From Nitrososphaera sp. (GTDB lineage Archaea; Thermoproteota; Nitrososphaeria; Nitrososphaerales; Nitrososphaeraceae), in contig JAJUFP010000001.1 of NCBI GenBank assembly GCA_029263715.1, positions 162,837-226,836 on the forward strand: a stretch of 64,000 nucleotides of DNA, in the 5' to 3' direction. Positions 49,238-51,964 of the stretch are shown here, in pieces. The translations under genes and the position numbers were made by a program. Under the pieces are notes generated by a model. It saw only the letters and a program-made list of their open reading frames with translations, made no database searches and was not told where the DNA came from. Every line of letters begins with the position of its first letter. Within the stretch, counting starts at the first letter, position 1.

Positions 49238-49289
49238 TGTTCTGGCATGGTACGTCTGCCTAAATATAATCAACGGTCGCGGCCTAAAC

Positions 49290-50339
49290 GGTTCTGTAAA
49301 ATCTTCAGATCATCACTGCCTCGCATGAACAGCTAACGTGACATTTCCCTAGAGAGATACTCTATGCGAAATTAAGCATCACACTACCTATTTTGATAAT
49401 TAGTGTATATCCCTGAGCCGATCTGTTGCACCTTTAGAATGAGCCAAAGATGTTACAGAACCCAACGGATGAAGAATTGAAAGTACATACCAAATAGAAC
49501 CTTATGAGAATACCGTCTTTCTGGATCACGCCCGCGCCGGCCTTATCGGTCGATCTTCTTTGGCCTCCTAGGGTAAGGCCTTAACTCTTATGAAGTCGAA
49601 TATCGTAGACCTGAATGGATATGCCTGAGCAACAAGCCTCTGATCAAAATAAAAAAATTGTGGAAGCATCTGATTCCGCAACAACGATACCGTTGGCAAA
49701 TCCCTTCCTTTATGTTCCTAAGATCATGTTTTTCACAAAAGGAAAAGGGATCCATAAAGATCATCTTACCAGTTTTGAGCTAGCGTTACGCGATGCACAA
49801 ATCTCAGACCTGAATCTAGTGAGTGTTTCCAGTATAAAGCCTCCTGGCTGCAAGATAGTTAGTATTCAGGAAGGAAGGAAGCATCTTGTGCCGGGACAAA
49901 TAGTATTTGCCATTACGGCGCGTTCGTCCACAAATGAACCCAACAGGTTAATTGCAGCATCAATTGGCCTTGCAAGGCCTGTCGATGATGCGAGCCATCA
50001 TGGTTATCTGTCTGAGCATCATAGTACTGGAGAAACCGCTCAGAAAGCAGGAGATTACGCGGAAGATATGGCCATGGAAATGCTTGCAACGACACTCGGC
50101 TTGCCTGACGATCCTAGCCTTACATGGGATCAGAGAGAAGAACAGTGGAAGCTGTCGGGCAAGATTTACAGAACACAAAACTTTACGCAGTCAGCAGAAG
50201 GAAACAAGGATGGCCTTTGGACAACGGTTCTAAGTGCAGCCGTCTTAATACTCTAGACACTGGTGATTCTCCGTCGTATAGGAAATGTCATCTTAGCTGT
50301 TCATGCGAGGCAGTGATGATCTGAAGATTTTACAGAACC
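49290..50339. mobile_element. Non-autonomous transposon-like cassette: 59-bp terminal inverted repeats (IS6-like ends), 8-bp target duplication, pdaD passenger
   Basis: 49290-49336 is the exact reverse complement of 50293-50339 (47 bp). After 2 mismatches, a further 10 bp match (49339-48 / 50281-90). Flanks gcctaaac / acctaaac. No transposase inside. Confidence 0.85.
49615..50256 (+). CDS. pdaD: Pyruvoyl-dependent arginine decarboxylase
   Basis: 'LTSFELALRDA.I...NLV.VSSI.PP' (S-S self-cleavage site), 'NEPNRLIAASIG', 'GYLSEHH', 'WTTVLSAAV'. Confidence 0.95.
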   Translation: MDMPEQQASDQNKKIVEASDSATTIPLANPFLYVPKIMFFTKGKGIHKDHLTSFELALRDAQISDLNLVSVSSIKPPGCKIVSIQEGRKHLVPGQIVFAITARSSTNEPNRLIAASIGLARPVDDASHHGYLSEHHSTGETAQKAGDYAEDMAMEMLATTLGLPDDPSLTWDQREEQWKLSGKIYRTQNFTQSAEGNKDGLWTTVLSAAVLIL

Positions 50340-50388
50340 ACCTAAACCAACATTTAAAAAGCGGAAGAAAACCATCCTACGAACGTAT

Positions 50389-50547
50389 ATGGCTGCGCGT
50401 AAGAACACGTCGCGCAAGAAGCGACTGATGAAGAAGACAAAGCAGAACCAGCCGGTTCCTGCATGGATAATCATCAGGACTCATCGCAAGGTAAGAACCA
50501 ATCCAAAGCGGAGGCTTTGGCGCGCGTCAGACGTAAATGTTGGTTAA
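50389..50547 (+). CDS. rpl39e: 50S ribosomal protein L39e
   Basis: MAARKNTSRKKRLMKKTKQNQPVPAWIIIRTHRKVRTNPKRRLWR...; missed by the ORF track. Confidence 0.96.
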   Translation: MAARKNTSRKKRLMKKTKQNQPVPAWIIIRTHRKVRTNPKRRLWRASDVNVG

Positions 50548-51106: not shown

Positions 51107-51964
51107 ATGTCCAATGATGATGTATACGTACTAGAAGATGTATTTACCCACGATCCCTTAGAATGGATTTCTTTGAGTAGATACGGTGAGCCAGCTATAT
51201 CGGAAGCATACCATGATTACAAGCATTATTTTCGCTACTTGGTTGAGACGTGGCGAAGGTTGCAAGAAGATTACGCCAGATTGGGTTCCTATGCCAAGAA
51301 ACTTGATCAATCGATGGATGCTGGCATAGAAAACGATGATGGAGCCATTCAAGAATACTTCCGAACCGTGCTTCTTGTTCAGATGGATACCGAAAGTTTC
51401 ATTATGTTTTCTAATAGGTTCATGGATAAGGCCGGCAAATTCATAGAGCGAATAATTAAGTCTAATGACGACAAGACGGTTGGTAACACCTTTGGAAAAC
51501 ATAAGGATTTCTTTATCGCGCCAAACAACCATCACTACAATCCTGCTTATTCACAATTTCTAAAGGACAACACTGCATGGTATGGACAATTGTCTGCCAT
51601 GCGCGACAAGTTGATAGAACATGGTGCAAGGAGTTTTAACAACGCCCTTCTCACATCGCCAAAAAAAGGTAGAATATACGTACTAAAGAACCATTCCTTT
51701 TTCCGTGTTACTCCAGAGGATGGATCAACGCTATCTGAAATAAAGAAAAACTATGAAGGCAAATATCCTGAGCTTGTTAAGGTTGTTGATAATGCATGGG
51801 AAATATTAAGATGTATCATGGAGAATAATATTGAATTAAACAGCAAAGATACAAAAAAAGTAATGGAAATAAACACAAGGATGGGCGGCTTGCTAGATGC
51901 ACCTGGCATTGCGAGAAACATCAAACATTTCCTTGAAGAGGTTGCTAGGATGGTGGGTTCTTAA
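51107..51964 (+). CDS. HEPN-like (Cthe_2314-type) helical protein
   Basis: All-helical; 'ESFIMFSNRFMDK' and 'MRDKLIEH' (Rx5H); AT-rich. Confidence 0.6.
   Translation: MSNDDVYVLEDVFTHDPLEWISLSRYGEPAISEAYHDYKHYFRYLVETWRRLQEDYARLGSYAKKLDQSMDAGIENDDGAIQEYFRTVLLVQMDTESFIMFSNRFMDKAGKFIERIIKSNDDKTVGNTFGKHKDFFIAPNNHHYNPAYSQFLKDNTAWYGQLSAMRDKLIEHGARSFNNALLTSPKKGRIYVLKNHSFFRVTPEDGSTLSEIKKNYEGKYPELVKVVDNAWEILRCIMENNIELNSKDTKKVMEINTRMGGLLDAPGIARNIKHFLEEVARMVGS

Follow-up and report, generated by a model that had tools for sequence, protein, structure and literature searches.

A pdaD gene enclosed by long inverted repeats

The stretch of DNA analysed here (the window) comprises 64,000 nt of the genome of a Nitrososphaera sp. 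(hereafter G000), a metagenome-assembled genome of 1.92 Mb in 14 contigs with an estimated completeness of 93.6%; coordinates of the cassette described below are window positions. Between a gene encoding a flavin-reductase-domain protein (PF01613; 48332-49238, minus strand) and rpl39e (50389-50547, plus strand), which is itself followed by rpl31e, the window contains a 1050-bp element (49290-50339) that is bounded by long inverted repeats and encloses a single credible gene, pdaD, encoding a pyruvoyl-dependent arginine decarboxylase. The two flanking genes lie outside the element, which occupies the ~25-bp spacer between their divergent TATA-like boxes (aaatataa at ~49262-49270 for the flavin reductase gene and tttaaaaa at ~50353-50360 for rpl39e).

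A repeat search delimited the two arms of the inverted repeat at 49290-49348 and 50281-50339. Each arm spans 59 nt and the two are 97% complementary (57/59), with 932 nt between them; the first 47 nt match perfectly and are followed by two mismatches (CG versus GA) and 10 further matching nucleotides. A 30-nt end probe matched just these two places in the window, versus none in 100 dinucleotide shuffles, and a blastn-short search of the whole 1.92-Mb genome located the 59-mer only in this pair. The left terminal inverted repeat (IRL, plus strand) starts with GGTTCTGTAAAATC and includes a subterminal GAACAGCT block that is recognizable in alignments with the IS6-like ends of the genus described below, while the right terminal inverted repeat (IRR, minus strand) is 57/59 identical to IRL. 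Immediately outside the arms lie the octamers gcctaaac (GCCTAAAC; 49282-49289) and acctaaac (ACCTAAAC; 50340-50347), which match at 7 of 8 positions and constitute the left and right copies of a target-site duplication (TSD), so that the junctions in the window read ...ggcctaaac[GGTTCTGT...ACAGAACC]acctaaaccaacatttaaaaagcgg.

Within the element we identified a third, diverged copy of the terminus, absent from the description in the original prediction for this locus. This copy (49439-49462) faces inward and is 20/24 identical to the cassette end; the corresponding feature, which reads GGTTCTGTAACATCTTTGGCTCAT...GCAACAGATCGG on the minus strand, spans 49418-49462, with an approximate inner limit at 49418. 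Together with IRL it delimits a small, two-ended module of 173 bp (49290-49462) that resembles a miniature inverted-repeat transposable element (MITE). Both outer ends and the internal end start with GGTTCTGTAA, showing the GG tip and the cTGTt motif of IS6-family insertion sequences (IS).

The pdaD reading frame is open from 49615 (49615-50256), with the conserved start at its second ATG (49621), and the resulting intact 211-aa product (49621-50256, plus strand) covers positions 1-161 of the 161 in the PF01862 profile (E 1e-57). The Ser-Ser self-cleavage site is retained, VSVSSIKPP aligning with RIS(A)IMPP of the S53A mutant of the Methanocaldococcus jannaschii enzyme (1n2m); with this site and a full-length PF01862 domain, the product is a predicted PdaD enzyme. 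It is 80-95% identical to other Nitrososphaera PdaD proteins. A putative TATA box (CTTATGAA; 49584-49591, plus strand), which aligns with TTTATTAA in the metagenome locus L056, lies ~30 nt before the start codon. No transposase was found among the open reading frames (ORFs) of the cassette interior. These results bear out the original prediction in its description of the locus, which had comprised a 47-nt perfect, 57/59 overall inverted repeat, a flanking 8-bp direct repeat with one mismatch, an interior holding an intact pdaD and no transposase, and a position between the TATA-like boxes of the flavin reductase gene and rpl39e.

Empty sites in relatives and the source of the cargo

The insertion site was compared with that of four relatives: G016, the closest (93% nucleotide identity in the flanks), G226, representing the next lineage, G009 and G003. 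A DNA search with the rpl39e-rpl31e region located the corresponding site in G016, where rpl39e and the flavin reductase gene are ~60 bp apart with nothing between them. This empty site reads ...ctgcctaaatataatcggctatcatggcctacaccaacatttaaaaagcgg... (core ggcctacaccaacatttaaaaa) and contains a single copy of the octamer, GCCTACAC. The homologous spot in G226 likewise holds a single target copy (TCCAAAC), and the two genes are adjacent, without pdaD, in G226, G009 and G003 as well. The presence of one octamer copy in G016 and of two around the element in G000 identifies the event as an insertion with target duplication. The tree of a neighbouring aminotransferase gene has the topology (G226,(G000,G016)), with support values of 99 and 97% in the Shimodaira-Hasegawa-like approximate likelihood ratio test (SH-aLRT), and, together with the empty relatives, indicates that the empty state is ancestral and that the insertion is specific to the G000 lineage. 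The element is therefore a real insertion that post-dates the split from the sister species G016. The original prediction had anticipated an empty site with a single target in relatives, as found here in G016 and G226, and in these relatives pdaD is located elsewhere or absent rather than lying at this position without the repeats.

The octamer has G at position 1 in G016 and A at position 5 in G226. These bases point to GCCTAAAC, the left copy, as the ancestral target, and hence to a single change in the right copy after insertion. As judged from the bases at the junctions, the duplication leaves both putative flanking TATA-like boxes with their original upstream bases.

A 1014-bp Logan contig from another sample (L055) is 99.1% identical to the cassette interior and ends 17 nt inside each arm. 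These end positions are those expected for a k=31 graph breaking at a 47-bp perfect inverted repeat, and the contig is silent on flanks and orientation. Exact-protein matches of rpl39e and rpl31e yielded no contigs spanning the insertion junction in other samples.

Comparison of the cassette with native pdaD loci from metagenomes (L051-L054) revealed 85.5% nucleotide identity over 49550-50252. Homology runs from ~65 bp upstream of the start codon through the stop codon, continues more weakly back to ~49446-49463, ceases a few bases past the stop codon and is absent outside the 49463-50262 segment; its weaker limit coincides with the inward-facing third end. These limits indicate that part of a native Nitrososphaera pdaD locus (49463-50262, plus strand) was captured in the cassette, comprising ~150 bp of upstream sequence, with a conserved TATA-like block, and the gene. 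The cassette thus probably brings its own pdaD promoter, from which the gene may be expressed. With 85.5% as the best nucleotide match to the cargo, the donor is not represented among the sampled loci. The 90% PdaD cluster members P0122, P0123 and P0127 were considered as cassette copies and rejected, being native-type loci that are 81-85% identical at the nucleotide level and lack IS6-like ends.

In several members of the genus, pdaD occupies a different, conserved neighbourhood, with a gene of ~130 aa on one side and, on the other, genes of 285 aa (dihydropteroate-synthase-like) and 148 aa. In G000, contigs C9 and C10 hold the counterparts of these neighbouring genes, without an adjacent pdaD, and pdaD is single-copy in this genome, so that the second, chromosomal copy considered in the original prediction does not exist in the assembly. 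Of the 72 genomes of the genus, 44 contain pdaD. G016 lacks the gene, as do several genomes of 93-99% completeness, and in G003, G132, G013 and G009 it survives as a pseudogene or remnant. This patchiness across the genus was recorded alongside the location C10:23741-24625 in G000. A search of 13 Nitrososphaera genomes for AdoMet_dc-type arginine decarboxylases (PF02675) returned none; PF02784 detects one protein in each of the 13, probably LysA, and is uninformative on alternative arginine decarboxylases. The cassette therefore supplies the only pyruvoyl-dependent arginine decarboxylase of G000, in a lineage otherwise without pdaD. In archaea, agmatine, the product of this enzyme, is associated with polyamines as well as with agmatidine, a modification of tRNA-Ile.

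Phylogenetic inference on pdaD places G000 in a clade (96% support) with G226, G078 and soil metagenome sequences, its nearest neighbour being P0003 (95% identical over the core). G226 is also the sister lineage on the marker tree, and for this reason the pdaD tree does not discriminate between horizontal gene transfer and capture within the lineage.

A family of IS6-like ends and its transposases

IS6-family elements are characterized by GG tips followed by cTGTt, by 8-bp direct repeats and by inverted repeats of 15-20 bp (PMC7986276). To look beyond the cassette, we used a loose end pattern, GGYTCTGTAANNTNNNNNGNTNAT, built from the positions common to its outer and inner ends. This pattern matched 17 times in 9 of the 72 genus genomes, versus once for the reversed control, and defined a family of ends found in the genus with consensus GGYTCTGTAAC...GG.T.AT...GTAACAG. 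The inner cassette end matches the GGTTCTGTAACGTCATAGGCTCAT ends of G132 and G247 at 21 of 24 positions, and alignment of the ends revealed a second conserved block (GTAACAG / GAACAGCT) near positions 35-45 that is common to the outer and inner ends.

In two genomes, ends of this family bound apparently autonomous elements. The element in G078 (L101) is 3069 bp long, with terminal inverted repeats (TIRs) GGCTCTGTAACGTTGGCGGGTGATATTCTGGCTGTAACAGCTCGG and a perfect 8-bp TSD, CGCAAGCG; that in G117 (L134) is 3079 bp long, with 50-bp perfect TIRs and a perfect 8-bp TSD, GAGATTCG. The TIRs of both elements are at least 45-50 bp, with no difference between the arms over the 40-50 nt compared. The encoded transposases (385 aa in G078; 373 aa in G117, a closed genome of 2.53 Mb) have SWIM and zinc-ribbon domains at the N-terminus, ahead of a DDE domain. 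The best-matching family for both proteins is IS6 (NF033587, 114.8 and 118.1 bits, E 4e-33 and 4e-34, with full profile coverage; PF13610, 59 bits), the next-best family scoring at most 50 bits. Both elements also carry passengers, comprising a 342-aa membrane-like ORF in L101 (2220-3248) and ORFs of 188 and 259 aa in L134 (1641-2963), none with a family match. They would count as passenger-carrying IS (tIS), a type with one listed member in the IS6 family. In G078 (contig C21), L101 lies 8 bp from another outward-facing IS6-like end (L101:258-281), the junction reading ACAGAACC-CGCAAGCG-GGCTCTGT; the element may have inserted beside an end that was already there, which would recall the targeted mode of insertion described for IS26.

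A scan of the G000 genome for GG..CTGT-type ends with flanking 8-bp repeats produced three hits, namely the pdaD cassette and two others, versus none in five offset controls. One cassette on contig C9 (137685-138774; L088:3686-4775) spans 1090 bp and has TIRs G(A/G)CGCTGGTGAAAAATCGGGTGAAAAC, a perfect 8-bp TSD (CTTTTGCA) and a GC-rich DUF1326 gene as its cargo, without a transposase. Further ends of this type are present in G006 and G003, including a ~1.09-kb cassette in G003 (L089:1629-2717; TSD GGGATTAT) whose cargo gene differs from that on C9. On contig C1 of G000, an 823-bp cassette (275573-276395; L163:1274-2096) has the ends GGTGTTGTCAAGAATCTGCC and GGTTCTGTCAAGAATTCGCC, a perfect TSD (GGTATTGT) and a sole sizeable ORF of 110 aa; its site is empty in G016 and G226, with one target copy in each. 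Ends of the pdaD type also enclose cassettes in G020 (L110; 932 bp, TSD TCCGATTA, a single ORF of 272 aa) and in G249 (L132; 1647 bp, TSD TTATTTTT, two ORFs). These sibling cassettes share the absence of a transposase and the presence of 8-bp TSDs, and their cargoes differ from one another.

The search for further copies of the end, as proposed in the original prediction, thus yielded no exact TIR, but it did yield a diverged family with other cargo and a cognate IS6-like transposase within the genus.

Inspection of G000 identified several other features. Self-BLAST of the genome for multicopy IS showed that it contains almost no repeated DNA. A solo IS6-like end (GGTTCTGTAACATTGGCTTGTG...TAACAGC) is located at C2:1442, 1.4 kb from the start of the contig, with no partner within 7 kb. 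At C6:170093-172862, a 129-bp inverted repeat (96% identity) surrounds 2.5 kb encoding a 650-aa multicopper-oxidase-like protein; this structure has no obvious TSD and its ends are not IS6-like. An inverted-repeat pair at C3:176306-178675 was discarded as a candidate element, as it consists of two similar tRNA-like genes. Just 3' of rpl31e, the window contains a 285-aa ORF (51107-51964) without a Pfam match, which may be another lineage-specific insertion; no homologue is present within 1.5 kb downstream of rpl31e in G016 (L014). This ORF was rejected as a related cassette, having no TIRs around it and being unrelated to the cargo of C9:137685-138774.

Origin, alternatives and significance of the cassette

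Mobile insertion cassettes (MICs) are recognized by TIRs akin to those of an autonomous IS that surround an unrelated passenger and no transposase, and their mobility by a TSD together with presence/absence polymorphism. The element at 49290-50339 displays the former with pdaD (PF01862) as its passenger, and the latter through its TSD and the empty sites in G016, G226, G009 and G003; the same cassette at a second site or in a second genome is not seen, G000 containing one copy and the 99.1%-identical contig L055 stopping short of the flanks. At 1050 bp and with coding capacity, the whole element falls outside the definition of a MITE (below ~0.5 kb and non-coding), into which the 173-bp left module alone fits. 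Nor is it a pseudo-compound transposon, which is defined by two complete, directly oriented IS copies, since it has bare inverted ends and no IS copies. We consider that the element is most likely a non-autonomous, MIC-type cassette derived from an IS6-like family resident in Nitrososphaera and mobilised by a transposase supplied in trans, an interpretation that supports the minimal insertion cassette originally proposed.

Several observations weigh against this reading. The 59-bp TIR was not found elsewhere in 200 genomes of the family (25 nt, at most 3 mismatches), and a degenerate 19-of-24 TIR pattern run over GTDB species genomes and JGI/ENA metagenomes returned singletons at the chance rate only. 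The best-looking of these, L046, lies in an IS200/605 TnpB-like pseudogene region on an unrelated GC-rich contig and was judged a chance match. The nearest ends in the genus match the outer TIR at just 18 of 24 positions, and no parent IS was identified. The L101 and L134 transposases score just under the curated NF033587 cut-off of 125 bits, and neither a PF13610 search nor tblastn with the G078 protein detected an IS6-like transposase in G000, where a copy may be missing from the 93.6%-complete assembly. The TIRs of this family (~50-64 bp) exceed the 15-20 bp of IS6, and the cassette end continues after GGTTCTGT with AAAATCTTC rather than with TGCAAA, thus lacking the 'caaa' motif. The TSD of the cassette matches at 7/8 rather than 8/8 positions, as against the perfect 8 bp of the related elements. 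Finally, the IS6 family is known to include two MITEs and one tIS/passenger carrier, making such derivatives rare, and its elements are described as forming cointegrates only (PMC7986276). Of the IS6 likeness put forward in the original prediction, the GG/CTGT tip and the 8-bp duplication stand. Short inverted repeats with the caaa motif and a transposase above the cut-off, both expected of a strict IS6 member, are lacking. Membership in IS6 would be one of association, through a diverged end family rather than an identical parent IS.

Some of these same points, namely the lack of a parent IS with the exact TIR and the 59-bp TIRs unlike those of classical IS6, are compatible with transposition by another DDE family that makes 8-bp duplications (ISL3, IS256, IS1595 or a hAT-like family), the likeness of GGTTCTGT then being coincidental or convergent. 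At least one other end type does make 8-bp duplications in G000: a 965-bp element on contig C9 (144052-145016; L088:10053-11017) has unrelated TIRs TACACCATTCATCTGCATATTCAAAC (TACACCATTC..., TACACC...) and a perfect 8-bp TSD (ATGAAGAA), carries a 246-aa ORF without a Pfam match, and corresponds in G016 to an empty site with one ATGAAGAA. We nevertheless regard a non-IS6 origin of the pdaD cassette as unlikely, given that, at both terminus and subterminal block, it aligns with the ends of elements of the same genus that encode IS6-like transposases, and given the enrichment of the end pattern over its control and the close match of the internal end to family members reported above.

A different history would have pdaD ancestral at the site and lost in relatives, or would have a larger fragment acquired by homologous recombination from a strain that already carried the insertion. 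The grouping of the cargo with pdaD of the same subclade, including that of G226, agrees with such a history, as does the 99.1%-identical interior in another sample (L055), which places the cassette in more than one population. Ancestral presence would nonetheless require independent, base-precise excisions restoring a single target in each of four genomes (G016, G226, G009 and G003), and transfer by recombination would leave the nature of the element unchanged, the TSD at its junctions recording transposition into this very site; we judge this history improbable. Least plausible is a role of the repeats in the host, either as recombination sites of a switch that inverts or as a long stem in RNA around the pdaD transcript, or their origin as an assembly artefact, as might be imagined from long, near-perfect inverted repeats bracketing exactly one gene and from a Logan contig (L055) that breaks inside both arms. 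There is no recombinase nearby and no Rfam match, the left arm is upstream of the conserved promoter region of pdaD itself, the contig break is the one expected from the assembly graph, an assembler would not create a TSD matching the empty site of relatives, and ends of this type, accompanied by TSDs, are found again around unrelated genes.

Under the favoured reading, that of an IS6-like cassette mobilised in trans, the two-ended module that now occupies 49290-49462 may have been located, in a donor, ~150 bp before a native pdaD gene. Just downstream of that gene, in inverted orientation, its outer end would then have been duplicated to give the present IRR; an IRR copied from IRL would explain the near-identity of the outer ends (57/59) and the divergence of the inner one. 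This duplicate may stem from a further insertion, or from intramolecular replication with a subsequent deletion. The later insertion of the 1050-bp unit at GCCTAAAC, with duplication of 8 bp, would be the work of an IS6-like DDE transposase that acted in trans on the two outer ends. That the enzyme acted in trans is suggested by the lack of an IS6-like transposase in G000. If this enzyme acts like those of IS26 and IS257, a cointegrate would have formed first and would have been resolved by homologous recombination between the cassette copies (PMC7986276); the TSD-flanked simple insertion seen here would fit such a resolved product.

The MICs described in bacteria, such as MIC231 (Bacillus cereus group), and MITE-bounded gene cassettes like the qnrS2 MIC on Aeromonas plasmids (PMC5444012, PMC6199540), resemble the pdaD cassette in their IS-related TIRs, TSD, passenger gene or genes and lack of a transposase, and their mobilisation in trans is likewise presumed. 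They differ in that the cassette described here has an archaeal host, IS6-like rather than IS231/IS4-like ends, and a core metabolic cargo as opposed to resistance or accessory genes; it is also three-ended, combining a MITE-like module with an extra end, and single-copy. With IS6-family elements (IS26, IS257, IS6100; PMC7986276), the cassette shares the GG tip followed by CTGT, GGTTCTGT being the tip of IS257, as well as the 8-bp duplication, and the ends of this type in the genus bound a DDE transposase with IS6 as its best match (PF13610, NF033587). The Nitrososphaera elements depart from that family in their ~50-64 bp TIRs, the absence of 'caaa', the additional SWIM/zinc-ribbon domains of the transposase and the size of the autonomous copies, which reach ~3.07 kb with passengers, versus a typical 0.7-0.9 kb. 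IS6 pseudo-compound transposons and translocatable units (IS26-bounded resistance modules) likewise enclose a chromosomal gene between IS6-type ends and mobilise it as one piece; unlike them, the cassette has bare inverted ends instead of complete direct IS copies that operate through cointegrates and recombination. Archaeal MITEs (Sulfolobus SM1-4, Halobacterium, Haloquadratum; PMC10969869) are also non-autonomous, with IS-derived TIRs and TSD, and the 173-bp module fits among them, but classical archaeal MITEs are gene-free, whereas the pdaD cassette carries an intact enzyme gene with a predicted promoter.

A 2019 survey of integrated elements in Thaumarchaeota reported passenger-gene transposons as undetected in archaea (PMC6563490). 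We found no later report of such archaeal cassettes, an absence of evidence from an incomplete coverage of the literature, and the pdaD cassette and its siblings appear to be the first archaeal insertion cassettes known to carry genes. The case is evenly balanced for a broader proposal, according to which Nitrososphaera would harbour a previously undescribed IS6-like system with long TIRs, a zinc-finger-extended transposase, autonomous copies that carry passengers and derivatives acting as single-gene shuttles, the cassette in the window having restored a lost core gene of agmatine synthesis.

Among the main routes of bacterial gene flow are transposons that carry passengers. The locus described here provides a base-precise case of filled and empty sites in a soil ammonia-oxidising archaeon, in which a minimal cassette with IS6-like ends would have delivered a metabolic gene; if this reading is true, passenger-carrying transposons exist in archaea and move housekeeping metabolism. 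Sibling cassettes and 3-kb autonomous elements occur in cultured strains (G145 and Ca. Nitrososphaera evergladensis SR1 have identical PdaD proteins, which identifies this genome with the cultured organism and the genus as Nitrososphaera), which makes the system experimentally testable. To our knowledge, genetic tools are lacking for this archaeal group, and the defined ends, together with their transposase, constitute a candidate natural vector for these archaea.

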